Shown one piece after another: positions 2,714 to 64,000 of a stretch of 64,000 nucleotides of DNA. Within the stretch, counting starts at the first letter, position 1. The number at the start of each line of letters is the position of its first letter. Below the pieces are notes generated by a model that worked only from the letters and a program-made list of their open reading frames with translations, was not told the origin of the DNA and did no database searches. The translations under genes were made by a program, and so were the position numbers. Source of the DNA: a virus; the IMG/VR virus record IMGVR_UViG_3300045241_000083, positions 7,000 to 70,999 of that record, one strand, 5' to 3'.

Positions 2714-3726
2714 GCAATAAGGATGAGCTGTACACCGAGGCGCCTTCGGTTATCGAGCAAGCATCTGGAGAAGGATGGACATTATATAATGGGGACTCAT
2801 GCGTGGTACTACCCCAAATTCCCGACCACTCGATACATCTCAGTATCTTCTCTATTCCATTCTTGGGGTTATACCTGTACTCAGACACGCCGCGCGACCT
2901 TGGCAACTGCCATGAGATAGGAGACTTCCTGAAGCACTTTCGCTTCATCTGCCAGGAACTTCTGCGCGTAGTCAAGCCGGGCCGCCTCGTGTGCTGCCAC
3001 ATACAGGACGTAATCAGCACACGAGCGTCGGACGGCGTGCGGGGCATCAAGGACTTCACCGGACCCGTCTCCGATCTATTCCAGGAAGTCGGCTTCGCCT
3101 ATCAGGGAAAGATCGTAGTCCGCAAGAACCCTCAACTCCAGGCTGCACGCGGAAAGGTGCATGAGTTGATGTTCGCGACCAAGTACCGGGACGCATGCGA
3201 CCTTGCGCCCGTTATGGTCGAGTACATCCAGCTATTCCGCGCTCCTGGCAAGAACGAGGTTCCCGTCGTCAATCCTATCGACAATGAGACGTGGATCGAC
3301 TGGGCGCACGGCGACTGGCCGGAAGACGGTAGGCCGTCCATTCCGAAGGCGAAGAACCCGCCGTACCCGTACGTGGGCGACTTCATCCCCGCCGTCCTGC
3401 CATTCGATAACATCCGAGAGACGGATGTGCTGAATTCGGGAGTGGCGCGTGACACGCCTGACGAAAGACATTGCTGCCCTTTGCAAATCGGACTCATCGA
3501 CAGACTGATTCGTCTCTACACAAATGAGGGCGAAGTGGTATTGGATCCGTTCAGTGGGATCGGATCAACGGCTTACCAAGCAATTCGATTAAATCGGCGC
3601 GCCGTCGGAATTGAGCTAAAGTCCTCTTACCACGCCGTGGCCGTCCGCAACGTCCAGAATGCCTGCGCGTCTAACCTGAAGCTCGATCTGTTCTCGGAAG
3701 ATACGCAAGAGGCTACGGCTATATGA
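2710..3726 (+). CDS. DNA amino-methyltransferase (N4-C/N6-A, beta-class order)
   Basis: Motif IV-like SIPF near the N-terminus, LLRVVKPG, HCCPLQ, VLDPFSGIGST (FxGxG), GIELK. Start placed at the ATGA overlap. Confidence 0.88.
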   Translation: MSNKDELYTEAPSVIEQASGEGWTLYNGDSCVVLPQIPDHSIHLSIFSIPFLGLYLYSDTPRDLGNCHEIGDFLKHFRFICQELLRVVKPGRLVCCHIQDVISTRASDGVRGIKDFTGPVSDLFQEVGFAYQGKIVVRKNPQLQAARGKVHELMFATKYRDACDLAPVMVEYIQLFRAPGKNEVPVVNPIDNETWIDWAHGDWPEDGRPSIPKAKNPPYPYVGDFIPAVLPFDNIRETDVLNSGVARDTPDERHCCPLQIGLIDRLIRLYTNEGEVVLDPFSGIGSTAYQAIRLNRRAVGIELKSSYHAVAVRNVQNACASNLKLDLFSEDTQEATAI

Positions 3727-4133
3727 ACCGCGCCGAGATCACCCGTCAGCAGAAGAACGAGGCCATTACAGCAGGAACAGGATGGATTTACGATACCACG
3801 CGGATGTCTCAAGGCGAGAACGGATTCAGGGATAGCTGGTGGCTCAGGGGCGGCAGAAGATACACCAATCCGCCCGACTACTTCGCGAAAACGCCAGATG
3901 GGGCGATGGCACGCGAGGAGGCGATGAGTTGGCTTATGGAGCGATCTTGTGAGATAGCCGGTATAAACACGTTCTGTTTGCCAGGAAGAGCAGGGTACAT
4001 GTACAACGTTGCATGGAACCTTGACCTGCCTGAAAATGTACTCGCGCAAGGTGACACACTCCCCGAAGCCATAGCCGAGTCGCTATATGCGGCGGTCGTC
4101 GCGATGGAGGCTGAGAATGCCAGTAGCAAGTAG
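3723..4133 (+). CDS. hypothetical protein
   Basis: ORF translationally coupled (ATGA) to the MTase. Confidence 0.6.
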   Translation: MNRAEITRQQKNEAITAGTGWIYDTTRMSQGENGFRDSWWLRGGRRYTNPPDYFAKTPDGAMAREEAMSWLMERSCEIAGINTFCLPGRAGYMYNVAWNLDLPENVLAQGDTLPEAIAESLYAAVVAMEAENASSK

Positions 4134-4566
4134 AGAGGAACTGAAGCGAAAAGCGCACAAAGCCCTAGGCAAGTCTGATAGTGTTGCGTATCGCCTGGAC
4201 ATGCCGGGCGATCTCATCATCCTGCGCGACTACATCGTAGAGCTTGAGGCCGAGCTAGACCGCCTGACCGTCGCCACGACAATGCAGGTTTGTCAGGGCT
4301 GCTCCGAGCAACACTTGCAGCGAGCAGGGTACATGGCGGATGGCCGGTGCGCGAAGTGGTGGCGGAAAAAATGCGCTGCAATGGAACGGTTCGTCCTGGC
4401 TTGCAAACGGATGCTGGATTATGAAGATGAGGCCAGCAGAAACGGAGCCGTGATGCTTGCCATCCCGTCCCCCGAGATGTATAGAAAGATGAGCCGCGAA
4501 ATTCGCTCGGCTCTTGCCGACCCAGCCATCGCCGATCTACTGAAGGAGGGAGGCGAGCATGCCTAG
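4117..4566 (+). CDS. hypothetical protein
   Basis: GGAGG upstream of ATG 4117; packed operon. Confidence 0.55.
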   Translation: MPVASREELKRKAHKALGKSDSVAYRLDMPGDLIILRDYIVELEAELDRLTVATTMQVCQGCSEQHLQRAGYMADGRCAKWWRKKCAAMERFVLACKRMLDYEDEASRNGAVMLAIPSPEMYRKMSREIRSALADPAIADLLKEGGEHA

Positions 4567-4927
4567 TACAACGACTGGACTACACTGCTCGAAATGCGGA
4601 AGCTTGCTCGCAGGATCATGGAGAATAGACGGCGCGCGATATCTATGCTCGGATTGCGCGCCGCCGTTCACGCTTGCGACTCCCGACCTTCAGGCTCAAC
4701 TCGTCGCGTCCGAAGCCCAACGACAGGGACTTGTACTCCAAATTCTTAAAGATACCGAGGAAACTGCGCTCCTGAAGGCTCGGTATCAGGCTCGCGTGAA
4801 GGAGCTGGAGGATGCACTGCGAGACATTGCAGACTATTACGGCCGTGAATACGTCGAGGGCGATAAGGCTTACCAGGCTCTCATCGTCGCACGGAAGGCC
4901 CTCGCCAGCACACAGGCGGAGGGTTAG
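4559..4927 (+). CDS. hypothetical protein, N-terminal CxxC...CxxC plus coiled coil
   Basis: CSKC...CSDC; GGAGG upstream. Confidence 0.6.
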   Translation: MPSTTTGLHCSKCGSLLAGSWRIDGARYLCSDCAPPFTLATPDLQAQLVASEAQRQGLVLQILKDTEETALLKARYQARVKELEDALRDIADYYGREYVEGDKAYQALIVARKALASTQAEG

Positions 4928-17856: not shown

Positions 17857-20800
17857 TTACTGACCTGCCTTGGCCTCTTCACGCATATCGCGCATATCTC
17901 GCCGTAAATCTCGTAGTTCGGGCGGGACCTTTGATTCAGCACGCTCAGGAGAACCTCTGACTATGCGCGAGTTGAACGGATCGAACAATTCGCTCGTTTG
18001 CGGGATACTCTTTGGCTTCAACTTCTGCCGCAATCTTGGAACGCGAGCCTTCACGTAATCCATGACCGTTTGCCGTCTGCGCTCCTTCTCGTCCATCTGC
18101 GCCGCGATGTCCGCGATGAACGTCGGGACGAAACTGCCGATAGAAGAGCCTGCCAGGAACTTCGCGCCCTGCGAGGAGCCTATCTCGCCCCAGTCCTGCG
18201 CCGCGTGCAGGTATGGCAGTTCCCGCAGCGATTCGGCCACGGGATGAAGCGGATCGGTCTTGCCTGTAACTGCATCCGACAGGCTCGCCCCAATCGCGAA
18301 GAGTGTGCCGATCGGGTTGATGGTCTGCGTCTCGTAACTTCGCCTTCCGACCTTGACGCCCGGAGCGGCCCACCCCTTACGCTTCAGGTTCTCGCGTTCC
18401 TTCCAGTCCTCGGGGTATCCGACGGCTTGTCCCTTGCTTCTCATATACGCGCCCAAAGCAATGATTCCCAGCCCGACCAATCCGCGTCCGAAGGTGCGTG
18501 AGAAGTTCCGCTGCTCCTCAAGGCTCATCGTTTCGCCGACCTGCTTACGGGCGTAGACCTTCGCCGCTTCGTATACCATACCAACCGGCGTGTACTCCAG
18601 CATCCGCGCCACTATATTGACTGGCACGGTCTGGACAGGGAAAACGAAGTCCAGCACGTTCGCCGCTATGTGTCCGGGAAGAGCCGCCGGCCCCTTGCGT
18701 TCCTTGCCTCTCATACTCGCCGTGAACGCCCGCATGCCCGTACTGAGCTTGTTCTTGTTCAGGAAGACCGCTGCCTCCGCTTCCGTAGCGGCCATTGCCG
18801 AGATAGCTTCAGCGTCCATGTGAGGATAGACGCGAGCCAATTCCTGTCTGGCCCGTTCGAATGCGGCGAGCTTAAAAGGCCGGTACGCGGCAGAGTGAGC
18901 GCGCGAAGCTGCTTCGACGTAAGCGTCACCGATAGCAGTCCCAGTGCTCGGCGCGAGATGCAGACCAGTTGAGGTAGAGCCGATCGGCTGCATTCCCGTT
19001 CGTTCCTGCGCCTTCGTCTCGCCATGTCGCGCGATAGCCGCCGCCTCCGATATCCCCTGTGTCGCCGCCTTATAACCCGCCTGAGCGACTTCTCCGAGTC
19101 TGGGCGCAAATGCCGCGCGCCGACCTGGAACCGATCCGACGATGCTCGATCCCGCCTTGGTAGCGACCAGCGCGTCCACTACTGCGCTTGGAATCTTCCG
19201 CACTTCCTCCGCGCCGAGGTATATCCCGTGGGAGACGAGAACCTTCGCGATGATCCGGGGAGCCGTAATCAGTCCAGCCCGACGGATAGCGAGGATCTTC
19301 TGTGTGAACGATACTGGCTGCATCATCAGGATTTCGGCGTTCACCTGATCGCGCAGCGCGTCCCGCTTGCTTCGCGCTTGGGCCAACTCTTCGTCAACCG
19401 GTCCCGGCGGGCGAGCCTTCTTCTGGAAATCGCGCTCGCGTAACTGTCGTTCGAGTTCAGCTATGGACTTGGCAGTCATCCTTTTCGCCTGCGCGAGCCT
19501 CTGTTCGTCAGTCATCTTGACCGGCTCGGCAGTAGCTTTACGCATCTCCTGCAACTGGCTCAACAGCGCGGCATGTTCCAGTTTCGCTTGACCGAGTTCT
19601 TTCGACCAGACCGCGACCGTCTGCTTCTTCCCTTCGATATCACCCACCTGGATACGGCGGTTTAGTTCGGCATTGGCCTTCACGGTCGCGCGCAGGCTCG
19701 ATTCGATCTTGCGTTGTTCGGGACTGCCCTTCACGGCATCGCGGGCCGTTTTTCGTAGGGCCGCCATCTGCTCTCGTAACTTGACCTGCTGCTGCTTCAG
19801 TTGGCCGAGTTCAGCGGACCACGGTGAGGATGCCGTCTTCGCCCCCTCGATGTCGCCTGACTGAATCCGCTTCTGTAGATCGGCGATGGATCGCTGAGTA
19901 GCGCCGATAGCCGTCCTGATCTTGCTTTGGTCGATGTCGCCCTTGTTTAGATTGTCATATACACCCTGGAGTCTGTCACGTTCGACCTTGAGCGCATTGG
20001 CCTCCGCGTCGTACGCGATCTTCGTCTGCTCCGGCTTCTTCGTCTTCGTGTCGATGTACCTGTTAAGGTCCGTGATCTGGTTCTTCAGCCGCGTCTTAAC
20101 AGCGTCCATTGCGCTCTTTAGCCCCTCCGCCGTGGAACGTGTATTGGCTATTCCCTGCTTGCGCATCGTCTCATTGACTTCAGCGGTCAGACGGCGCACC
20201 TCGGCGCTTTGGGCGTCGCGCTGGAAACCCGTCTTCAGCGGACGCTGTCCCTTCTGAGCGTCCTCCAACTGCTCTATCTTGAGCATCTGCGCTTTCATCT
20301 CGCGAAGCGTCGCGGCATTCTCTTCCGGGTTAGGCTTCGTCGTCTCTCCGTACCGGCTGATAGCGCGGCGGATGTCACTGTGGGTTATGCCCTCGATAAC
20401 ATCCTTGGCCGTCTCGTGGATTTCGCTGACCAGCGCGCCGATTTCCCGGACGCCATGCGAGATCAGGACCTTTGCCATCCTGACGACGATGCCAGCCTCT
20501 TCCGCTGGTAGCCTGACGGCGCCGGACTGTCGGCTGGTAGGCTTGCCCGGTCGGGAACGTAGCGCGCGCCACTCGTCCGCAAGGCCCTTGAGTTCGGCCT
20601 TGAACTCGCCTCGCGCCGCAGTACGGTTCAGTTTGCGGGTCGCCTTCTGGCCCTCGCGCGTCAATTCCTCGACAGCCGATTGCGCGCGCTGGTTCTCGTA
20701 TGCCGCGTCCGCCGCCTTCTTCTCCTGCTCCTTGGCTGCCCGGTCCTGTTCGGCCTTCTCGTATTCGGCGACCTTCGCCCGCAGGGATTCCACTTCCGCG

Positions 20801-23800
20801 CTATTGATCGAACTGCCCTTCGCCATTACCGCCCGCCCGACGACGGCCTTCAGGCTCATCTTGTCGTCAATTGTGAGCTTGCGCGACTCGAGCGCGCGGC
20901 CCTGCATCGTGCCCGACTTCTTGTCGATCTCGGCGATACTGGCAAACTCCTTCAGCAACCGCTCGCGCTCGGAGCCGGCGCGCAGTATCTCGCGGCTGCC
21001 GGTAAGCGTAGACGTGGCTTCTTCCAATGCAGGCAGGCGGTTCTTGATCTGCTGGAGCCGGATGTCAAGTCCAGCAGTCTCTTCGGCGCTCAGTCCGCGC
21101 GGACGAGATCGCATCTCGTCAATCGTGCCACGGATATGCTCCTCGGTATGAAGCCCCTGATCGAACGCCTTTGCGAGCGTTTCGATGTGTGATTGCGGAG
21201 TGTGCGGGTTCAGCGGAGGCAGGCCCAACCGCTCCAAGTCGCGGTTCACCGACGCGTTTCGAGAGGCCGTATCATCGCCTTCCGGTTTCGCCTCTCGTGT
21301 GATTTCCTCCGTGGGAACGCGCTTGCCGATCTCATTCCACGCGGCGTGAAGATTCTCGTCGCTGATCTCGTGTCCGAGGTCGGCGCGCATCCGCTTGGCC
21401 CATTCAGCGAACGTGCGGATACCCGCTTCGACGTGGTAGCCGCCGATCTCCACAAGGTCCTTGAGTATCGTCGGATCGATGCCCGCAGACAATCGGTTCA
21501 GCTTGTCCTTGAGTCGATTGACGGCTTCCTCGTACGCGTCTCTGGTGAAGACCTTGTTCTGCGCGCCGTACTCTTCGGCAGGCTTGGTCTTTGATTCCGC
21601 GCCCGCGCTCTCCGCCTTTTCACCAGTAGGACGAGGAGGCTCTGGCGCAGACTCAGCCTTCGGTGCCTCTCCCTGCTTCACAGGAGGCGTTTCTGCGGGC
21701 TTTGCGGCTGCGGGGGTAGGTGCGGGCGGCTCGGCGGGTTTGGGCGTGGGAGGCTCGCCAATATTCCAGTTGTTACCCTTTAACGACCAGCGACGACTTC
21801 CTGCAGGCCCCTTATTCAGCATGACGTAAGGTTCGGACGCCGATGCGGGATGGACAACTTTGCCTGCGTAGACTTGCCCCTTCTCGTCTTTCCACCAGAC
21901 CTTATCACCAACAACAGGAGCCCCACCGGATGGTTGACCTGCGGAAAGCCCCCCTTTCGCAGAATCCGGTGGGGTCGTTGTAGCTGCGGAGGACGGTGCA
22001 GCCACAGCGTTGACACGGTACTCCGATCCATCGGCGCGGCGGATGACATGCTCGCCGTCAACGATGCCCTCGTAGCGTGCGCCCTCCGGTACGGTGACGC
22101 CGGCAGGTGCAGGACGCGCTTCGGGGGCAGTTCCGCCGACGTGCACGTCAGGTTGTGCCGCCACCGCCCCCGAAGCCTTCTGATAGTCCCACTGCTGCCC
22201 ATCATGCGCGAGCCGGGACACGGTGCCCATATCCGGCGCGTCCTGCATGAACACATTCGGATCGAGCCGGATCGGGTTCATCGGCTCGCCCGCCGCCTTC
22301 CATGCCCGGATTGCACGCTGCACCGTCGAATTGGTCACGAGGACCGGCGTGCCGCCCTCAGCCCGCACCTTCTGGTAGGCCGGGATGATCTTGTCGATCC
22401 ACTGCTGAACCGACTCGCCGCCGGGGAACGCCTGGTCCGGGTTCTCGACGTGCTGGCGGATAATGGCTTTGTTCGCATCGTTATCCGGCTGCGTCCTGAG
22501 CGCATCACCGATGTCAAGCGGCTCGAACTCGTTGTTGACCACAACCGGCAGGCCACTGACGTGCGCCATGATCTTCGCGGCCTGCTGTGTACGCTGGAGC
22601 GGTCCCGAGACGATCCGGTCGGCCCCGCTGTCCTTCAGGCTCTCACCGGCCTGCGCCGATTGCTTCTTGCCGGCGGTCGTCATCGTAACGCCGCTCGGCG
22701 CGGAGAGTTTGCCCGCGCGATCCGGTATCTCGCCGTGGCGCGCGAACAGGACGCTCTCGGCTGTGCCGGGTGGAACGGTTAGCCCTTGCGATTGCGTGGG
22801 CGCTGAGGCTTGGACTGCGGCTTCGGCTGGACCCGCTCCGGCAGTCCCTTGAAGCCCCCCGGCTGCGACTTGGTTGCCTGCTCCCACTCCTTGATCTTGG
22901 GGAATTTGCCCTGGGACGCCAGTTCCTCCAGCTTGCGCTGCTGGGCCTTTGACTTGAACGGCACCTGTCATCACCTCCTCTGTTGGGGTTGGTACGACTG
23001 GCGGGGCGGTTTCGGCCATCTTCTCCGGTGCGCTGATAGCGCGTCTCCGAAGGTAGGTATCCGCCGTGTGACGGAGTGTGTCGGCCAGGTAGTTGAACGC
23101 CCACTGCCGGTTGTCGCCCTTCACGGACGCTGCGTGCTGTGACGCTACTTCCGCCGCGCCCCGCAACGCTTGAGCTTTGTCCAGTGATGGCTCCGACATG
23201 AAGCCTTCGACGATCTGCCCGACGCTCTTGCGGACGTTCTGTCGATCCGCCGCCGCGATCCCATGCTCCAGAATGGCCGGTGAAAGAGCCAGTAGGAAGT
23301 TGAACGACGCACCACCTGTGTCCCCTTCCCGCAGTTGGTTCATCGCGTTATTGGCGGCGTTGGCGGAGAAGCCAGCCATGATGCCACGAGCCAGCAACGG
23401 GGCGCGTGTCGCGATCGCGCCGACTCCCACACCGCTTAACTGCATCTCCGGGTCGGCGAGGCTGTAGAGAAACTTCTCCGCCTCCGGTGCGAAACCTCGC
23501 GCCTGCGCCAGTACCTTCGCCCCCTCCGGCCCGCGAATAAGGTTGGCAAGCACTTCTGACGGACGTAGGGTCGATATGTCGCCTGTCTCGTGGTTGATGA
23601 CCGCGCCAACACCAATCACGCCTTCCGGCCCTGTTTGCGGTGGAACGAACTCCTGTTTCGCCTGCTGCGCTAGTTCGTCGGCCTTCTCAAGGATCGCTTG
23701 CTGCGCGACCGGCTTCATCTTCTGCAGGCGCGGGAACCACGTTGGATCGGCAGGGTTCCTAGAAAGCGCGTCCGCCGCTCGCATAGGCACGTTGGCGCGC

Positions 23801-24906
23801 AGGTTGCCGGTGTTCATGAAGTCCATCTTGAACTTTTGAAGTTGGTCATCCGTGAAGAGCGTCGCGGGCGCACGCAGGCTCGTAGGCTTGCCCTGTGTCG
23901 ATGACGGGAAGATCACGTCAGACGCCGTGTAGCGCCCGTTTGAGGGAGGCGAGGCAGGAGACGGCCGCAGGTCCATCGGCGGCTGCATCGACGCCTTGAG
24001 AGCGGAGATAACAGGTTCAGCGGTTGCGCCGGAGACGGCTCCAGCCGCTGCGCCGAGGTCGCGTCCATAGAATCCGAACTGCTGCTTGGCGGCATCTGTC
24101 ACAGTACGCGCGATCGGCCCTGCCGCCGCTCCAGCAGCCGCGCCAATCTGCCCTCCAGCGGGTGTAGGTGTGGCGGACGGCGGCGTGCTGGAATATCCCG
24201 GTGGTAGCGGTGGAAGCGTTGGAGACGGAGCATTGCCCGCTTGGTCCATCTGAACAGCATCACTGAGCATCTGCGCCATGTAGCCAGGACCGGAGCTCGC
24301 GTACGATCCAGGCGGGACCTGAAAGCCTCTCGGCAGGCTGACGTGGATATGGTTGTAGTGGTCTCCACCGATATTCGTCTGCCACAGGTAGCCCTTGTTA
24401 GTGCCATGCTCGCCGAAGGAGTATCCTGCCTGCTCCAGGTGCGTCACCAGCAGGTCGCCGAGGTTCTTGCCCTGCTTGGAGGATAGCGGCACGCCGTTGA
24501 TTGTCGAGATGTCGAGCGCCAGCCCAGGGATATGCCGCGACCGGTTTCCACTCTGCGCTACCTGCAGGTTGTGTTCGAGGGTCCGCTGCGCCGAGCTGAT
24601 TCCGAGCTTGAATCCGAGGCCGTCCGCGATGTCGTTGATGTCATTCAGAAGTCCCGCATGAGCGCGGCCGCCTGACTGACCCATGAACTGCAGGCGCGGG
24701 AATCCGCTGATGGGAACGATTTTGCTCGGCGGAGCATCCGAGAAACCTGCTGGAAGAGGCGGCATGGAGGACGGCTGCGCGCCCTGGTAAGGGTTCGCAG
24801 GCACCGGCATCGGGGGCGCATCGGTGTAGCCGGCAGGTAGAGGCGGCAGCGTTGCGACTCCGCCGCCCTGGTCGCCTTGATTACCAGATTGAGGATCGTC
24901 CGGCAT
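17857..24906 (-). CDS. giant internal virion/ejection polyvalent protein (~2,350 aa) with M15-like peptidase and histidine-phosphatase-like domains
   Basis: SSAQRT...SRHIPGLALDI...HYNHIHV (M15 Zn-peptidase pattern); VLFARHGE...IVSGPLQRTQQAA...FPGGES (His-phosphatase pattern); long helical C-terminus; located after two smaller ejection-type genes. Confidence 0.8.
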   Translation of the reverse strand: MPDDPQSGNQGDQGGGVATLPPLPAGYTDAPPMPVPANPYQGAQPSSMPPLPAGFSDAPPSKIVPISGFPRLQFMGQSGGRAHAGLLNDINDIADGLGFKLGISSAQRTLEHNLQVAQSGNRSRHIPGLALDISTINGVPLSSKQGKNLGDLLVTHLEQAGYSFGEHGTNKGYLWQTNIGGDHYNHIHVSLPRGFQVPPGSYASSGPGYMAQMLSDAVQMDQAGNAPSPTLPPLPPGYSSTPPSATPTPAGGQIGAAAGAAAGPIARTVTDAAKQQFGFYGRDLGAAAGAVSGATAEPVISALKASMQPPMDLRPSPASPPSNGRYTASDVIFPSSTQGKPTSLRAPATLFTDDQLQKFKMDFMNTGNLRANVPMRAADALSRNPADPTWFPRLQKMKPVAQQAILEKADELAQQAKQEFVPPQTGPEGVIGVGAVINHETGDISTLRPSEVLANLIRGPEGAKVLAQARGFAPEAEKFLYSLADPEMQLSGVGVGAIATRAPLLARGIMAGFSANAANNAMNQLREGDTGGASFNFLLALSPAILEHGIAAADRQNVRKSVGQIVEGFMSEPSLDKAQALRGAAEVASQHAASVKGDNRQWAFNYLADTLRHTADTYLRRRAISAPEKMAETAPPVVPTPTEEVMTGAVQVKGPAAQAGGTGVPGQIPQDQGVGAGNQVAAGGLQGTAGAGPAEAAVQASAPTQSQGLTVPPGTAESVLFARHGEIPDRAGKLSAPSGVTMTTAGKKQSAQAGESLKDSGADRIVSGPLQRTQQAAKIMAHVSGLPVVVNNEFEPLDIGDALRTQPDNDANKAIIRQHVENPDQAFPGGESVQQWIDKIIPAYQKVRAEGGTPVLVTNSTVQRAIRAWKAAGEPMNPIRLDPNVFMQDAPDMGTVSRLAHDGQQWDYQKASGAVAAQPDVHVGGTAPEARPAPAGVTVPEGARYEGIVDGEHVIRRADGSEYRVNAVAAPSSAATTTPPDSAKGGLSAGQPSGGAPVVGDKVWWKDEKGQVYAGKVVHPASASEPYVMLNKGPAGSRRWSLKGNNWNIGEPPTPKPAEPPAPTPAAAKPAETPPVKQGEAPKAESAPEPPRPTGEKAESAGAESKTKPAEEYGAQNKVFTRDAYEEAVNRLKDKLNRLSAGIDPTILKDLVEIGGYHVEAGIRTFAEWAKRMRADLGHEISDENLHAAWNEIGKRVPTEEITREAKPEGDDTASRNASVNRDLERLGLPPLNPHTPQSHIETLAKAFDQGLHTEEHIRGTIDEMRSRPRGLSAEETAGLDIRLQQIKNRLPALEEATSTLTGSREILRAGSERERLLKEFASIAEIDKKSGTMQGRALESRKLTIDDKMSLKAVVGRAVMAKGSSINSAEVESLRAKVAEYEKAEQDRAAKEQEKKAADAAYENQRAQSAVEELTREGQKATRKLNRTAARGEFKAELKGLADEWRALRSRPGKPTSRQSGAVRLPAEEAGIVVRMAKVLISHGVREIGALVSEIHETAKDVIEGITHSDIRRAISRYGETTKPNPEENAATLREMKAQMLKIEQLEDAQKGQRPLKTGFQRDAQSAEVRRLTAEVNETMRKQGIANTRSTAEGLKSAMDAVKTRLKNQITDLNRYIDTKTKKPEQTKIAYDAEANALKVERDRLQGVYDNLNKGDIDQSKIRTAIGATQRSIADLQKRIQSGDIEGAKTASSPWSAELGQLKQQQVKLREQMAALRKTARDAVKGSPEQRKIESSLRATVKANAELNRRIQVGDIEGKKQTVAVWSKELGQAKLEHAALLSQLQEMRKATAEPVKMTDEQRLAQAKRMTAKSIAELERQLRERDFQKKARPPGPVDEELAQARSKRDALRDQVNAEILMMQPVSFTQKILAIRRAGLITAPRIIAKVLVSHGIYLGAEEVRKIPSAVVDALVATKAGSSIVGSVPGRRAAFAPRLGEVAQAGYKAATQGISEAAAIARHGETKAQERTGMQPIGSTSTGLHLAPSTGTAIGDAYVEAASRAHSAAYRPFKLAAFERARQELARVYPHMDAEAISAMAATEAEAAVFLNKNKLSTGMRAFTASMRGKERKGPAALPGHIAANVLDFVFPVQTVPVNIVARMLEYTPVGMVYEAAKVYARKQVGETMSLEEQRNFSRTFGRGLVGLGIIALGAYMRSKGQAVGYPEDWKERENLKRKGWAAPGVKVGRRSYETQTINPIGTLFAIGASLSDAVTGKTDPLHPVAESLRELPYLHAAQDWGEIGSSQGAKFLAGSSIGSFVPTFIADIAAQMDEKERRRQTVMDYVKARVPRLRQKLKPKSIPQTSELFDPFNSRIVRGSPERAESKVPPELRDLRRDMRDMREEAKAGQ
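22779..22964 (-). CDS. small basic protein nested out of frame in the giant gene
   Basis: AGGAGGT SD 8 nt before GTG; MPFKSKAQQR...KEWE..T......LPERV resembles a small phage protein family. Confidence 0.55.
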   Translation of the reverse strand: MPFKSKAQQRKLEELASQGKFPKIKEWEQATKSQPGGFKGLPERVQPKPQSKPQRPRNRKG

Positions 24907-24907
24907 A

Positions 24908-24937
24908 TTGCGTTGTACCTGCAAAACGTGCTACTAT
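24908..24937 (+). promoter_or_regulatory. promoter of the RAMP/pentamer-array cassette
   Basis: TTGCGT-18 bp-TACTAT with extended -10 TG; predicted start near 24944. Confidence 0.6.
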
Positions 24938-24943
24938 GTGAGC

Positions 24944-25049
24944 GTCACGGTCGCTGGAGTACAATTTCATAAAGAAGGCATGGCGCAAGCCATCCTCTCG
25001 ACGCCCGCTTTCCAGCGACCGTGACAAGTAGCTGAGATGGCGGGCGTCG
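24944..25049 (+). ncRNA. structured leader RNA of the RAMP cassette
   Basis: 15-bp IR (24944-24958/25011-25025); internal ATGGC-GCAA-GCCAT hairpin; competing 10-bp pairing 24999-25008/25040-25049. Confidence 0.55.
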
Positions 25050-25060
25050 TTGCGTGTGCC

Positions 25061-25280
25061 GATCAGCTTTGACCTGATGGGCCGCGCCAAGTCAGGACTA
25101 GCCGAGATACGTCTTGTTCAGATCAGTTAGGCTCCGATATGCCACGGCGAGATATGTTTTGCCCGGTTGCGATGCGCCCGGACGCGATTGGACTTGATGG
25201 GCCAAGCCGGGACAAGTTCCGAAAAGCTATGCCGAGCCACGCCTGGCTGTGACAAGTTCGGATGAGACGGGCCGAGTCTT
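25061..25280 (+). repeat. pentamer-periodic non-coding array 1 (44 x G-H-Y-N-N), candidate guide RNA
   Basis: G at position 1 in 44/44 units, pyrimidine at position 3 in 43/44, G at position 2 only once; positions 4-5 variable. Confidence 0.92.
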
Positions 25281-25304
25281 ACTCTCTCTCAGAAAGGAAC
25301 GAGA

Positions 25305-25970
25305 ATGTCCACTGCTACGAGAACGAAGGGAAACGGAAAGCCAGTTGCGATTGAGACGTTGGACACAAGCCAGACGACGAATGGCGGCGATTTTGTTGTC
25401 GACAAAGGCCGCCCCTACATCGCAACCGTGAAAATCGAGGGAGTCGCGACACTCCTGCTTCACGCATGGAACTGCGATTCGGTCGAAGCGAAGGCTGGAG
25501 CCGTGAAGGGCAGTTCGGCCAAGAAGACGGATGATGTAGAATCGTACGTCGTTCGGGCATCGAATGGCGAAATCGGCATTCCCGCATCGTACTTCCGCGG
25601 CATGATATGCGGGGCGCAGGGAGCCGCGAAGTATCGCCAGGACCCGCGCTCGCCGCGAAAGTCCGCGCTCGACCTGTACCGCGCTGGCGCGGTGATTATG
25701 ACGGAGATTGCATCGCTCGGCGTCAAGAAGTGGGACCTGCTCGACAAGCGGCGCGAGGTAGTCATGCGCGCTGGTATCACGAGAGTGCGTCCTGCTATGC
25801 TCGCCGGTTGGCGGTGCGAGTTCGATATTCAGTGCATCCTGCCTGAGTACATCAGCCCACACGATCTTCACTCGGTTCTCGTCGATTGCGGCCGTCTCTG
25901 CGGCCTAGGTGATCATCGTCCCACATATGGACGGTTCGCCATCGTCGGCTACGAGGTTCGGCAGCTTTGA
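25305..25970 (+). CDS. stand-alone RAMP/Cas7(Csm3)-like RNA-binding protein
   Basis: VKIEGVATLLLH (beta1), GEIGIPASYFRGMI (compare IPGSSLKG), GWRCEFDI, C-terminal Gly loop GRLCGLGDHRPTYGRF; AAAGGA SD. Confidence 0.8.
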   Translation: MSTATRTKGNGKPVAIETLDTSQTTNGGDFVVDKGRPYIATVKIEGVATLLLHAWNCDSVEAKAGAVKGSSAKKTDDVESYVVRASNGEIGIPASYFRGMICGAQGAAKYRQDPRSPRKSALDLYRAGAVIMTEIASLGVKKWDLLDKRREVVMRAGITRVRPAMLAGWRCEFDIQCILPEYISPHDLHSVLVDCGRLCGLGDHRPTYGRFAIVGYEVRQL

Positions 25971-26193
25971 CTCGCTCAGATGCGCTATGTCTCGCCCTGC
26001 CACGTCAGGACAGGTTGCGACTCGTCTTGTCGCGCTGTGGCAAGTCGCGCTGCGTTAGGACGTGCTACGCATAGCCGAGACAAGTTCCGCCAGGACAGGA
26101 TCAGATCGGATATGCTCAGTTCAGCCATGCTGTGTTGTGTTTGGTTTAGACAAGCCTAGACAAGCCAAGACTGGATTAGTCGTGCTTCGATTA
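25964..26193 (+). repeat. pentamer-periodic non-coding array 2 (46 x G-H-Y-N-N), candidate guide RNA
   Basis: G at position 1 in 46/46 units, pyrimidine at position 3 in 45/46, G at position 2 only once; starts at the last codons of the RAMP gene. Confidence 0.92.
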
Positions 26194-26197
26194 TCTC

Positions 26198-27697
26198 CTA
26201 CCGCTGCGGCACCCACTGGCCGTTCTGTAGGAGGAATGTCACCGGACGCCCCTGCGCATCGTAGGCGCGCCGCGTGACTGGCGCGCCTGTCGGTGCCTTT
26301 GGCGGTGCAGCAACTCCCGGAACTGCGGATTTGGCGCTCGACGCAAGAGCGTTGGCCGCTTGATTCGTTGCGGTAGGACTCGGATTGCCGGTAGCCGCTG
26401 AGCCAACCTGCATGTATCCGCCTTTCACAAGCGAGCCGTAGGCATCGTCACGCAGACCCTTCAGCGCGTCCAATGTCCCTTGAGCCTGCACCTTCTGCTG
26501 AGCCAACTGGTCCAGTTTCCTGACGGCGAATGGATTACCTATCGCGGCCATGTTTAGGAGCGCCGAAGGGATCTTCTCGTCAAATCCTGTCAGTTGTGCC
26601 TCCAACGCCGCCGTGTCCCGTTTCAGCCCGTTGTACGTCGCCCTGGCATTGGCTGCCGCTATCCTCCGGTCGCCTTGCGCGAGTTTCGCCCAGTCAATCT
26701 GTGAAAGCAGGGAGACCTTCTGGCTTGCGACCGTTTCCAGCGCGCGCCGATGCGTAATCAGTGACTGCTGCACCTGGCGCTTGAGAGCGTCATCTGCAGG
26801 AAACGCGGCTACCTGATCTTTGAGTAACGCCGAACGCTGGTCGGCAACCTCTTTGTACGCCTGCGCGCGCGTCTGTGCGGCCTGCGCCGTCATCGTCCTC
26901 GCGGCGGTCACCGCCGGTATCGCGCGCGCCTGAGCATCGTGCCACGCCTTGAGTGCGTCATCCTTACCGATCTTCGCCTGCTGTCCAGCCGTCAGTTGCC
27001 CGAAGAAGTCACGAGGCAAGCCAGGAACGTCGGGCGCGTGAGGAACTCCCTCCTGCTGTTGGGCTATCCCCGGCGCAGCTCCAGCGACAGAAGCCGCCGC
27101 GCCGATCGCCGGGGCCATCATGCCCATCATCCCGGCCGCGGGATTGAACGGCGACATCGCCATGCCGCCCATCATTCCCGGCATTCCCTGCTGTGCACCA
27201 AACTGCGCGGATTGAGGAAGCTGTTGCTGCATCGCCCTCTGCGTGTCCATCTGCTTGCCGCGAGCGACCGCCGCGACCTGCTGCTCCACCGGCGTCTCGT
27301 GCATCCAGCGCGCGAGAATTCCGTAGTTCAGGACCTGCTCCGGCGTCGCGCCAACACCCACGAGGCTTGTGACGAGACCCTTCGTGTCGTTGGGCCCCCA
27401 CTGCTTCTTCTCTCCTGTGTTGTCGGCGCGCGCCTGCGCTTCGGCAGTCATGGCCTTCGTGTAGTCCGGTCGCGCCTGTGCCTCCTTAAGCTGCGCGTCA
27501 CGAAGCCCCTGCCCCTGGTTCCATTCCAGCTGCCGCTGTGCGAACTCACGCGCCTGCTGGTCGCGGATGGCGTTCTGGTACGCCGCAGTCTGCGCCTGCT
27601 GCTGCTGAGCTAGGCCGTAGTTCTGCTGCGATTGCTGCTGTTGGTCGAACTGGTTTCGACCCTCGAACAACGCTTGCATGAAGGGAGAGAGACCCAC
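26198..27697 (-). CDS. putative internal virion/DNA ejection protein
   Basis: Gln/Ala/Met/Gly-rich helical protein between nozzle genes and the giant protein. Confidence 0.7.
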   Translation of the reverse strand: MGLSPFMQALFEGRNQFDQQQQSQQNYGLAQQQQAQTAAYQNAIRDQQAREFAQRQLEWNQGQGLRDAQLKEAQARPDYTKAMTAEAQARADNTGEKKQWGPNDTKGLVTSLVGVGATPEQVLNYGILARWMHETPVEQQVAAVARGKQMDTQRAMQQQLPQSAQFGAQQGMPGMMGGMAMSPFNPAAGMMGMMAPAIGAAASVAGAAPGIAQQQEGVPHAPDVPGLPRDFFGQLTAGQQAKIGKDDALKAWHDAQARAIPAVTAARTMTAQAAQTRAQAYKEVADQRSALLKDQVAAFPADDALKRQVQQSLITHRRALETVASQKVSLLSQIDWAKLAQGDRRIAAANARATYNGLKRDTAALEAQLTGFDEKIPSALLNMAAIGNPFAVRKLDQLAQQKVQAQGTLDALKGLRDDAYGSLVKGGYMQVGSAATGNPSPTATNQAANALASSAKSAVPGVAAPPKAPTGAPVTRRAYDAQGRPVTFLLQNGQWVPQR

Positions 27698-45751: not shown

Positions 45752-46399
45752 TCATTCCTTCACCCTGCGGTACACGGGCCACCGACTCCCGTCCAGGGCG
45801 GTCCATACCTCATCTGTCTTTACCTTTACGCCGAAGTGCCTATCCATCCACTGCTCATCCGGGCATTGCGCGCCTTCTACCGGTATCCTCAAAGGCTTGA
45901 CCTTCTTCGGCACGGAAGGCTGACCGTTGAGGCACCGCTTGCAGGACCATCCCGACTTCCCGCATCCACACACCCATTCCAAACGCGCCAACCACTCTGA
46001 CTCGGTAACCATCATGCACTTGTACGGGAGAGTGACCTTATCGCCCTCCGGCAGAAGCGGCGTTCCACTCCAATGGATCAGGACCATCGCGCCGCCCTTG
46101 CCATCCACCGGCACCCCGCGTCCCCTCCCCTCGAATCGGCCATCGTCGGGCAGCGGATTACAGGGCGGCGCGTGTCCCGTAACGTGTCCCGTAACGTGTC
46201 CCGTAACCTCGGGATGTCCCGCTACCTGTCCCGCTACCTGTCCCGGTACATCTATTTGTCCCGCTACGACAGGTTTCGGGACATTTACCTGTCCCGGTAC
46301 ATCGTTACGGGACATCCTCTGATGCTTCTTCTTTGCCGCCTCGTACGACATCCCGTCCGCCATTAGATTTGCAATCCCTGCGTTCATCTCCCGTGGCAT
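45752..46399 (-). CDS. hypothetical protein with internal repeat region and Zn motif
   Basis: AGGAG SD before ATG 46399; GHVT/GQVA repeats; CGCG....CKRC. Confidence 0.55.
   Translation of the reverse strand: MPREMNAGIANLMADGMSYEAAKKKHQRMSRNDVPGQVNVPKPVVAGQIDVPGQVAGQVAGHPEVTGHVTGHVTGHAPPCNPLPDDGRFEGRGRGVPVDGKGGAMVLIHWSGTPLLPEGDKVTLPYKCMMVTESEWLARLEWVCGCGKSGWSCKRCLNGQPSVPKKVKPLRIPVEGAQCPDEQWMDRHFGVKVKTDEVWTALDGSRWPVYRRVKE
46173..46314. repeat. cluster of TGTCCCG heptamers (8 direct, 2 inverted)
   Basis: Direct at 46173, 46185, 46197, 46215, 46227, 46239, 46257, 46290; inverted at 46277, 46308. Confidence 0.85.
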
Positions 46400-46585: not shown

Positions 46586-48361
46586 CTACGCCACCCTACC
46601 ACCATGCGAGCGCAGGAGCAGGTGCGCCAGACCGTGGGCGGTCGTTTCATCGTCATGGCCTCGGCTCGCACCGCGTACGCCATCCTTCTCGACATACGCC
46701 AGCATCTCCCGGATCGCGCGCTCGTCCACGATCTCGATACCCTCCAGCCCCGCCGCCCGGTCGTTGATCGCCGTCTGCAAGAGGCTGTCCCGCCTTAGCT
46801 GGCCCTTCTCGGAGACCATGTAGCCCCACCGGGCCTTCTCTGGAGGAGTAATCCGCGTCAACGGTTGGCCGGGGTTGTAATGGCGCAGGTTGGGATAGAC
46901 CGGATCCAGATCGCGCATCTGCTCCATCGCCTGCAACCCGTAGCCCCTCGGATCGTTCTCCACCAGGATTTCAGCGTCGTTGTAAAGGTTTCCTATCACC
47001 GCCATGTCGCGTCCAAAATCCCTCGGAGTGGGCCGGCCAAAGTACGCGGCTACCTGACGCCACGTGTCAGCGCGGTAGATGGCGAATGTGGACCAGTCGT
47101 GCGGATTGCCCTCTGCCAGCCCTCCCACTCCGCTACAGGCGTCCGCGCCGGCCACGTAACGGATGAGCGGGTCCTTCTCTCGTCCACACTCAGGGCAGAT
47201 CGCCACGCCGTCGCGGAGGTATCGCGCGAGGCAGTCGTAGCTGGCCCCGCACGCGCACTCGATGTATCGCACGTCCTCCAGATCCAGCGGCGGATCGTAG
47301 ATTTTGAGGATGCCGTGGAGCTGGTGATCGTCGAAGGCGTGGGAAGGGTCGAATCGCTGCGTCGGCTTCGGCAGGCCGGGGAGCTGCGCCATAAGCCATT
47401 CGACGTTGAAATATGCGTTGGTGCCGCTGCTGATAAAAGCCTCTTCCGCGGTCCAGGGGTACTCCTGCGATACCAGCCCCTTCTGATCGATGGTCTCACG
47501 GCGATACCACGCGAGCTGCGCATCATCCAGACTGTGGGCCTCCGCTCGCTTCTGCTCCTCCTCGGTGCGCGTAAATCCGTCAGGCACGGGCAGCGTACAG
47601 CGTGGGTCCAGGTACCAGGGAACGAACAGCTGGTCGTAGTCCGTCAACCCGTCCTGGCCCTCTATCCAATCGTCGTAGAAGAAATTGAGGCCGTTGGCGG
47701 TGGTCTCCTCGGCGATGTTGCCCCACCGGGCGGCGGTCTTCAGCGACGCATCAAGCTCACGTATGAACTCTGCGTCACCGGGCCACTTACTGCGCTCGCT
47801 GAGGTGGAGGTTTGCGATCTGGGCACCTGAGAACAGGTTGGCGACTCCAGCAGTCGCGGCCACGAGCCTGCTGTTGGTCTGCGGCCAGAACAGTTCTCGC
47901 GTGTTGGCGCGGCCGGCCGGTAGCTTCTTGTCAGATGGGAGGTGACGGTAGAACCGGTCCACGATCTGGAATATCGCCTCGGCGCTGCGCTGGTCGTGCG
48001 CTACGGACGCGGTGAACCGCTCTGCGTTGTTGTACGTGTCGAGGAACATCAGGGCGAGGATGAGCGTGGAGAACCCGGCGCGGCGCGATTTGAGGAGCCG
48101 TTTGCGCCAGCGGAGGTTGGCTATTTTGGGTGATGGGTCGTCAGGGTCGAGGCCCAGCCATTCCATCAGGATGCGCTGCGGCGGGTTGAGGATGAGATCT
48201 ACGATATTGCCGTCCGCGTCGAGGATCCTCAGGTCGCGGAGGGTGATGGGATTGGGTTTGGCAGACTCGTAGTCAGGAGGCAACCACCGGCTTAATGTCG
48301 TCAACAACTCCTCGGAGAACTGTTGTACGTTGTACCGCTTCGGCGATTCGACGAGCAACAT
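46586..48361 (-). CDS. terL: terminase large subunit
   Basis: KSRRAGFST (Walker A), VAHDQ, LHLSE (Walker B), ETTANG, FVPW, QEYP...EAF, GADAC, ILVEND, HDDETTA; exact start uncertain. Confidence 0.92.
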   Translation of the reverse strand: MLLVESPKRYNVQQFSEELLTTLSRWLPPDYESAKPNPITLRDLRILDADGNIVDLILNPPQRILMEWLGLDPDDPSPKIANLRWRKRLLKSRRAGFSTLILALMFLDTYNNAERFTASVAHDQRSAEAIFQIVDRFYRHLPSDKKLPAGRANTRELFWPQTNSRLVAATAGVANLFSGAQIANLHLSERSKWPGDAEFIRELDASLKTAARWGNIAEETTANGLNFFYDDWIEGQDGLTDYDQLFVPWYLDPRCTLPVPDGFTRTEEEQKRAEAHSLDDAQLAWYRRETIDQKGLVSQEYPWTAEEAFISSGTNAYFNVEWLMAQLPGLPKPTQRFDPSHAFDDHQLHGILKIYDPPLDLEDVRYIECACGASYDCLARYLRDGVAICPECGREKDPLIRYVAGADACSGVGGLAEGNPHDWSTFAIYRADTWRQVAAYFGRPTPRDFGRDMAVIGNLYNDAEILVENDPRGYGLQAMEQMRDLDPVYPNLRHYNPGQPLTRITPPEKARWGYMVSEKGQLRRDSLLQTAINDRAAGLEGIEIVDERAIREMLAYVEKDGVRGASRGHDDETTAHGLAHLLLRSHGGRVA

Positions 48362-63673: not shown

Positions 63674-64000
63674 TGGAAACCACGATTGCGTTTGAGGGGA
63701 GTGGTCGTTCCGGTTCCGGTTACGGTTCCGGTTCCGGTTACGGTTACGGTTCCGGTTCCGGTTACGGTTCCGGTTCCGGTTACGGTTACGGTTCCGGTTA
63801 CGGTTCCGGTTACGGTTCCGGTTACGGTGACGGTTACGGTTACGGTTCCGGTTACGGTGACGGTTACGGTTACGGTTCCGGTTACGGTTCCGGTTACGGT
63901 GACGGTTACGGTTACGGTTCCGGTTACGGTGACGGTTACGGTTACGGTTACGGTTCCGGTGACGGTTACGGTTACGGTTACGGTTCCGGGTCCGGTTCGG
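63673..64000 (+). CDS. Gly-Ser/Tyr/Asp repeat protein (runs off the window)
   Basis: METTIAFEGSGRSGSGYGSG...; TGATG coupling. Confidence 0.6.
   Translation, partial: METTIAFEGSGRSGSGYGSGSGYGYGSGSGYGSGSGYGYGSGYGSGYGSGYGDGYGYGSGYGDGYGYGSGYGSGYGDGYGYGSGYGDGYGYGYGSGDGYGYGYGSGSGS
63709..64000 (+). repeat. hexamer tandem repeat GGTTCC/GGTTAC/GGTGAC
   Basis: Continuous 6-nt periodicity to the window end. Confidence 0.95.

Follow-up and report, generated by a model that had tools for sequence, protein, structure and literature searches.

The IMG/VR virus record IMGVR_UViG_3300045241_000083 is a single contig of 70,999 bp that encodes a phage portal, capsid and terminase, together with a 2355-amino acid (aa) virion-type protein. 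We have studied a locus within bases 7000–70999 of this contig, a stretch of 64 kb that we call the window and to which all coordinates below refer. At the heart of the locus is a gene for a 221-aa protein of the RAMP family (25305–25970, + strand), which we term vipr; its product is designated P0001. The gene is flanked on its own strand, and in perfect phase, by two arrays of a five-nucleotide (nt) repeat, array 1 lying upstream (25056–25280) and array 2 downstream (25964–26193). Array 1 is preceded by a non-coding leader (24925–25055, + strand), the presumed promoter region of the unit, and a 24-nt spacer (25281–25304) containing the purine-rich ribosome-binding stretch AAAGGAA separates it from the ATG of vipr. 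The nature of array 2 is the principal subject of this analysis.

Array 2 is an unbroken series of 46 head-to-tail pentamers of the form G-H-Y-N-N, where H is any base but G, Y is a pyrimidine and N is any base. Every fifth base is G over 25964–26189, the last unit extending to 26193. Thus position 1 is G in 46/46 units, while position 2 is C in 17, A in 15, T in 13 and G in a single unit, and position 3 is C in 23, T in 22 and A in one. Array 1 comprises 45 unbroken units of the same form, with its run of guanines at 25056–25276. There position 2 is A in 18 units, C in 16, T in 10 and G in 1, and position 3 is C in 23, T in 20, A in 1 and G in 1. When the two arrays are pooled the first position is invariant (G1 in 91/91 units) and the third almost so (Y3 in 88/91), and the second is A in 33, C in 33, T in 23 and G in just 2; all four bases occur at positions 4 and 5 in both arrays. 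Elsewhere in the window no period-5 run of any base exceeds nine units. Tandem Repeats Finder misses both 5-nt arrays, and inside array 2 calls only a 10-nt repeat of 2.5 copies at 26147–26171. Array 2 begins 7 bases before the end of the vipr open reading frame (ORF), within its final two codons and stop, and it ends 4 bases short of the stop codon (26198–26200) of a convergent ORF, so filling the entire gap between the two genes. An earlier examination of the DNA, to which we refer as the sequence-only reading, had placed the boundaries of array 2 in the stop region of a RAMP gene and 4 bp before the convergent stop, and these agree with the ORF map; its string of 46 NN dinucleotides is identical to ours, letter for letter.

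P0001 belongs to no Pfam family. Its single match in PHROG is phrog_4652, of unknown function, and the 4820 homologues found at E ≤ 0.001 in a large protein collection are nearly all unnamed. Its sole sequence match in the PDB is the SUSP1 Vipr protein (36pp_D), with E = 7e-6 for the single sequence and E = 5.6e-11 for a 33-sequence profile. A model generated with AlphaFold (pLDDT 81, pTM 0.73) was compared with known structures using Foldseek, in a fold library that ends at April 2026 and apparently contains no Vipr entries. The best matches are the Csm3/Cas7 chains of type III, VII and IV CRISPR complexes, with probability 1.00 and TM scores of ~0.5. The G-loop of P0001 (CGLGDHRPTYGRF), GDHRPTYGRF, aligns with GDWRPRFGRF of SUSP1. 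Elsewhere in the alignment H17 of the SUSP1 protein corresponds to H53 of P0001, D177 to D203, R179 to R205 and the thumb residue R138 to R162. The residues that read G1 (H17 and D177) and Y3 (R179) in SUSP1 align with residues that are invariant in the family of P0001, and the P0001 ORF is intact with those invariant residues kept. The closest relatives of the protein (P0003–P0014) are 64–75% identical to it and all have GDH in the G-loop; the DNA encoding them was not found in the viral, genome and metagenome collections searched. From its sequence and predicted structure, P0001 is thus a minimal RAMP protein homologous to the described Viprs, in keeping with the label of RAMP gene given to it in the sequence-only reading.

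VIPR systems have been described in three preprints (10.64898/2026.04.26.720920, 10.64898/2026.04.26.720927 and 10.64898/2026.10.15.759431), and the following is drawn from the parts of these that are accessible. Vipr is a phage-encoded minimal RAMP that polymerizes on vrRNA, a guide RNA consisting of 9–16 YNNGG repeats and a 3′ tail. G1, G2 and Y3 are held by two neighboring Vipr protomers, and in the solved SUSP1 complex W178 of Vipr stacks on G2 of the repeat. The NN bases pair with double-stranded DNA in which one base is skipped, and in the type that has been studied competing phages and satellites are thereby silenced at the level of transcription. Seven types are distinguished, and ‘related’ consensus forms NNNGG, YNNNG and NNNNG are allowed. 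The architectures include staggered arrays, arrays separated by ribozymes and single-guide loci, and an accessory gene, vap, is typically but not universally found next to vipr. GGY-type solo guides of satellites or rivals are reported to hijack Vipr. A fourth preprint (10.64898/2026.10.21.760802) reports, in the text available, 21 clusters of Vipr-linked period-5 arrays with a triplet other than GGY, and names GAC/NN, CAC/NN, WGT/NN and TGH/NN. Beyond these four 2026 preprints a literature search found no further publication on such arrays.

How general is this arrangement among relatives of P0001? We collected 241 loci (~1.1 Mb) from viral, genome and metagenome collections that encode relatives of the protein with 38–61% identity; individual loci carry numbers prefixed L. 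Period-5 G arrays are present in 157/162 sequences, comprising 161 homologous loci and the window. In the examples inspected they lie on the vipr strand, and those downstream of the gene begin at its stop codon, as in the window. There are 108 non-identical arrays of at least 24 units among the relatives, with unbroken lengths ranging from 24 to 141 units, and since unbroken arrays of this size are common the length of array 2 is normal for its clade. No flanking gene is found consistently beside vipr across the clade. The biggest real cluster of flanking genes is a ResIII/DEAD helicase, present at 31 loci, and other neighbors resemble phage replication genes. At L376 (phage DSL-LC04, OR003939.1) the Vipr homologue (3974–4591) is annotated as a ‘helix-turn-helix transcriptional regulator’, and repeat arrays (3700–3937) lie in the unannotated gap just upstream of it. 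L040 and L041–L045 share 97.5% identity across vipr and the first part of the array downstream of it; inside the array region there is then a block of several hundred bases that differs, after which identity resumes. The pattern suggests that guide segments are gained or lost as modules.

The relatives allow the published targeting rule to be examined within the clade. We compared 395 non-redundant arrays (9702 units, including the two of the window) with the 1.1 Mb of the loci and with this phage, using gapped seeds of six units that were extended and counted if the score was at least 18. With a skip of one base there are 87 such matches, arising from 12 arrays. With no skip there is one, with a two-base skip there are none, and with a one-base skip and shuffled unit order there is again one. 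The matched segments are 9–16 units long, and their sites lie in the vipr ORFs of other relatives or in the flanks of these, on either strand. The segments are embedded in arrays of 12–61 units, of which the remaining units are unmatched at the same place; long arrays of the relatives therefore contain guide-sized segments with no visible punctuation. In all matches inside vipr ORFs (39/39) the skipped base is the third, wobble position of the codon. The one-base-skip rule is thus reproduced independently in the clade of P0001.

Some of these matches are of interest in their own right. VIPR-against-VIPR targeting is frequent among the relatives, for example at L205 (735–844), L106 (2311–2450) and L057 (2341–2490), and units 1–15 of the L205 array match codons ~41–55 of the vipr genes at more than 20 other loci. 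The target-matching segments of L205 (735–809) and L182 (3096–3150) are rich in non-GGY units such as GTT, GCC, GCA and even TGC, whereas in each array the rest, which has no match, consists of canonical GGY. Comparison of positions 2 and 3 of the repeat with the skipped target base in the relatives gave a low chi-square p, but the 59 guide–target pairs are non-independent and reveal no pairing pattern, and we draw nothing from it.

We conclude, with a probability of about 0.85, that this phage encodes a VIPR system and that array 2 is its downstream vrRNA array. Array 1, vipr and array 2 would probably form one transcription unit on the + strand. One Vipr protomer would be bound to each pentamer of the RNA, holding G1, position 2 and Y3 and leaving the two N bases exposed. 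The NN string would pair with double-stranded DNA reading NN-x-NN-x, with one base skipped, and a competing mobile element bound in this way would be transcriptionally silenced. The variant repeat, G-(not G)-pyrimidine, may go with the histidine that replaces the aromatic G-loop residue stacking on the second G in SUSP1. On the strand of vipr no nuclease or other accessory gene adjoins it, and there is no vap gene beside it; both neighbors, the gene for the 2355-aa virion-type protein and a 499-aa ORF lacking family matches, are on the opposite strand. The suggestion that the system is a nuclease-free repressor therefore sits well with the absence of a nuclease adjoining vipr and with the published repressor mode, although a partner might be encoded elsewhere. 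CRISPR-like repeats are absent from the window, and cas families from the 17 proteins scanned.

A number of results weigh against this assignment, and the first concerns the repeat itself. The canonical GGY consensus fails at position 2 in the window, where just 2/91 units have G. We compared position 2 with the G-loop in 136 non-identical loci having at least 20 repeat units. Among 124 loci with the dipeptide DF in the G-loop the fraction of G at position 2 has a median of 0.79 and a range of 0.43–1.00. Just three loci have low G at this position, and all have a changed dipeptide: the window (DH, 2/91 units), L455 (QY, a fraction of 0.01 over 106 units) and L222 (DD, 0.26 over 23 units). Yet L062 has the same DH dipeptide as the window and retains GGY repeats (0.85 G), and loci with N, M or Y at the G-loop position keep GGY too. 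Of the non-DF loci 2/12 have a G fraction below 0.2 (Fisher p = 0.007, calculated on loci that are few and related), and the association of the G-loop residue with repeat position 2 is suggestive but weak. Between 24700 and 26500 no sigma-70-type promoter was called and no + strand terminator, and there is no T-run after the stem-loop that follows array 2. Neither a conserved 3′ tail nor visible punctuation between guides was found in the arrays, and arrays 1 and 2 share no tail. Transcription of the arrays, its strand and the processing of the product would follow by homology with the described systems.

The remaining contrary evidence comes from the search for targets. The NN strings of both arrays were compared with the phage's own 71-kb genome using skips of 0–3 bases, and nothing rose above 30 shuffles; at a skip of 3 the search recovers the arrays themselves. 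Against the 241 related loci (1.12 Mb) the top score was 12, where the mean for shuffled strings was 13.1. Matching in both orientations, at the level of codons, to 121 proteins (the Vipr of the window and 120 homologues) gave none above shuffles. Five scans of IMG/VR with exact 8-unit NN-x seeds, taken from units 1–40 of array 2, returned 14, at least 120, 19, 6 and 9 loci. At these seed loci, at least 168 in number, the flanks match at 1136/3854 bases (29.5%), the level expected by chance, and the best single flank reaches 58%. In the reverse direction, there was no significant targeting of this phage by the arrays of the relatives, the best score of 16 being also reached by shuffled arrays. 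Thus the best matches of array 2, both in the phage itself and at the related loci, score no higher than shuffled strings do, an outcome that the sequence-only reading had named as a test against itself and that speaks against a demonstrable target. Its exact seeds in IMG/VR do not extend. This was a narrow search, with exact seeds in IMG/VR and host genomes left out, and it leaves the claim of a target for array 2 open rather than refuted.

Position 2 of the repeat is strongly biased. The base composition of the window is 29% G, and the near absence of G at position 2 (2/91) argues against a simple loss of constraint. Nor does the position look like an extra guide base, since in the window it is independent of positions 3, 4 and 5 (p = 0.41, 0.71 and 0.38, respectively). 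A scan for 14 consecutive GHYNN units detected mostly the reverse strand of GGC-type arrays, and L455 was the only true same-clade case of a GHY repeat. L455 encodes a protein of the same family as P0001 with Q-Y in the G-loop, and its G-H-Y arrays, 106 units in all, lie on the vipr strand. Arrays of GAC (L480, L503 and L529) and of GTC (L427) were also observed in IMG/VR beside distant Vipr homologues. One speculative explanation, to which we give rather little weight, is that G-H-Y is an orthogonalized code. Exclusion of G at position 2, together with the change of the G-loop residue that stacks on G2, would prevent the guides being loaded by the GGY Viprs of rivals, and GGY solo guides would be unable to commandeer this Vipr. 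If that were true, repeat-code switching would be a counter-measure in an arms race between VIPR systems, and would give rise naturally to Vipr/guide pairs that are insulated from one another.

The 3′ part of array 2 (units 33–46, 26124–26193) has an unusual composition. In the last 12 NN dinucleotides 19/24 bases are A or T, compared with 40% A/T in the window, and the NN positions of units 33–46 contain a single C. When the units were shuffled within the array the last 12 reached this A/T content in 231/20000 trials, and some window of 12 units did so in 3269/20000, and so on its own the AT-rich tail is only moderately unusual. Comparison with the family makes it more distinctive. An A/T excess of at least 0.2 in the last 12 units is found in 0/108 of the relatives' arrays of at least 24 units, and these exhibit no 3′ trend. 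Four or more TA units occur in 0/6074 windows of ten units from the relatives, while units 37–46 of array 2 hold four. Overall the NN positions of the relatives' arrays are ~49–51% A/T, which fits the first and second codon positions of GC-rich targets. The AT-rich tail is therefore a peculiarity of array 2 and not a structural feature of the family, and the AT-rich last dozen dinucleotides remarked upon in the sequence-only reading prove to be an outlier within it.

What might this tail be? Part of its A/T content arises from the tandem duplication at 26147–26171, the 10-nt element TAGACAAGCC present in 2.5 copies. It is possible, though in our estimation the less probable view, that the AT-rich last third is young, low-complexity filler generated by slippage of a two-unit tandem duplication, with its target lost or never present. 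The duplication spans two units and supplies two of the four TA units of the tail. No target was found for units 33–40, which gave at least 120 chance seeds in AT-rich viral contigs with no extension, and when read as codons the tail would be unusually rich in tyrosine on either strand. Yet G1 and Y3 are perfect throughout the last 14 units, which favors units that are still loadable, and position 2 continues to avoid G there, as if the units were kept in that state. Moreover, none of the 108 relatives' arrays has such a tail, which suggests that the growth of arrays does not routinely give rise to one. As part of a guide array, the tail may be a guide for an AT-rich and probably non-coding target. 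The more specific proposal of the sequence-only reading, that it is aimed at a promoter or operator, is not supported, as nothing ties the tail to either; its resemblance to an extended –10 box (TGnTAnAAn) is a post hoc idea.

We next consider whether the array is one guide or many. The whole 230-nt array might be a single long guide or scaffold, on which a filament of 46 protomers would read ~137 bp of one target. The 46 units contain no punctuation, tail, ribozyme or phase shift that would divide them, and unbroken runs reach 141 units in the relatives. Against this, the target-matching parts of the relatives' arrays are 9–16 units long and lie inside arrays of 12–61 units, and the vrRNAs described in the accessible parts of the preprints have 9–16 repeats. 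A single guide is thus improbable. The 46 units would most likely be three or four consecutive guides of ~9–16 units, and by analogy with the segments that match targets in the clade under the one-base skip array 2 is likely to hold several independent guides, as the sequence-only reading had suggested.

We regard it as very unlikely that the locus is a VIPR system in decay, with a GGY code that has been eroded at position 2 and arrays that have lost their function. Such decay would accommodate the departure from the canonical G, the absence of a target for array 2 in our searches and the lack of an accessory gene. Neutral drift, however, predicts ~29% G at position 2 together with erosion of G1 and Y3, and the observed values of 2/91, 91/91 and 88/91 look like active exclusion. 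The ORF is intact with the invariant residues of its family kept, and L455 repeats the same pattern over 106 units. Least probable of all is that the period is a feature of the DNA itself, reflecting for example phased sites for protein binding, curvature or an origin. Five bases is close to half a helical turn, but in 157/162 sequences the arrays follow the strand and the stop codon of a RAMP gene, and only positions 4 and 5 vary. A structural repeat leaves unexplained why these positions in the relatives match coding sequence that is foreign to them, the skipped base being the wobble position in 39/39 cases.

The remaining features of the locus can be described briefly. Directly after array 2 a predicted stem pairs TCTCCTAC (26194–26201) with GTAGGAGG (26227–26234), and the resulting possible stem-loop (26194–26234, + strand) extends into the 3′ end of the convergent ORF. 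It is a guess, based on the predicted fold, that it serves as a 3′ cap or terminator. The RNA fold of array 2 with its flank has z = –1.13, which is not better than shuffles, and a search of the arrays against Rfam gave nothing above threshold apart from a chance miRNA-like match below it, and no ribozyme. The convergent ORF of 499 aa (26198–27697, – strand) bounds the locus and lies outside the system; it had been labeled an ejection gene, a name for which Pfam and PHROG provide no match. On the other side the giant 2355-aa ORF (17857–24924, – strand) diverges from the VIPR unit. Besides a Peptidase_M15-like stretch and a histidine-phosphatase domain, it has a region resembling DarB-like antirestriction proteins.

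Two further repeats were observed elsewhere in the window. Approximately 48 copies of a GTTACG/GTTCCG hexamer occupy 63707–63998 and continue up to the point where the contig ends; they might represent a terminal repeat or an end effect of assembly. Adjacent 12-nt tandem repeats, CGTGTCCCGTAA (3.1 copies) and TGTCCCGCTACC (2.9 copies), lie at 46171–46249, a few hundred bases from the gene for the terminase large subunit (46586–48361), and could serve as a packaging signal or as iterons bound by a protein.

The VIPR guide array is a known kind of system, described in the 2026 preprints, and the locus in the window is a modest variant of it. Its distinguishing traits are the G-H-Y repeat, the changed G-loop residue, the long arrays lacking a tail and the absence of an accessory gene. 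It adds to the known examples a VIPR system of a soil phage in which the repeat deviates from GGY in a defined manner, inside a clade that otherwise uses GGY, and our analysis of the clade indicates that VIPR-against-VIPR targeting is common beyond the systems of enterobacteria and Pseudomonas examined to date. Should the protein variant and the repeat variant truly be paired, this would point to the residues that set repeat specificity. It would also provide naturally insulated Vipr/guide pairs, useful for operating several programmable repressors in one cell, and would suggest that repeat codes evolve under the pressure of guide hijacking.

How does the window system compare with those already known? 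In common with VIPR it is phage-encoded and has a small stand-alone RAMP protein (~20 kDa) with a G-loop and thumb, in which the counterparts of the SUSP1 residues reading G1 and Y3 are conserved. On both sides of the gene, and on the same strand, are tandem pentamers in which three positions are constrained and two are free, and in the clade of P0001 the free positions match targets with a one-base wobble skip, often in the vipr genes of rivals. It differs in its repeat, which is G-H-Y and not the canonical GGY, though this counts as a ‘related consensus’ of the kind allowed in the available text of the preprints. The tryptophan that stacks on G2 in SUSP1 is replaced by histidine in the window protein, where most relatives in the clade have phenylalanine. 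In contrast to the SUSP1-type (type II) systems, for which 9–16 repeats and an invariant structured pseudoknot tail are described in the parts accessible, there are 45–46 unbroken units, and the locus has no vap gene beside vipr. The arrays share with the non-canonical ones of the fourth preprint (10.64898/2026.10.21.760802) a Vipr-linked period of five and a triplet other than GGY. The examples named in its available text fix or relax other positions, and G-H-Y is not among them; the repeat of the window has two degenerate positions, with G specifically excluded, and arises inside a clade that is otherwise GGY.

More distantly, P0001 has the same RAMP fold as the Cas7/Csm3 backbone of class 1 CRISPR complexes, seen in the Csm3 and the type VII and type IV Cas7 chains. 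By homology it would share with these the placement of one protomer per fixed step of guide RNA, and the flipping of a base induced by the thumb. The window differs from class 1 CRISPR in having no repeat–spacer array and no other cas gene in the neighborhood. Its period is 5 nt where that of the CRISPR backbone is 6, three guide bases would be sequestered at each step, and the guide information would be non-contiguous.

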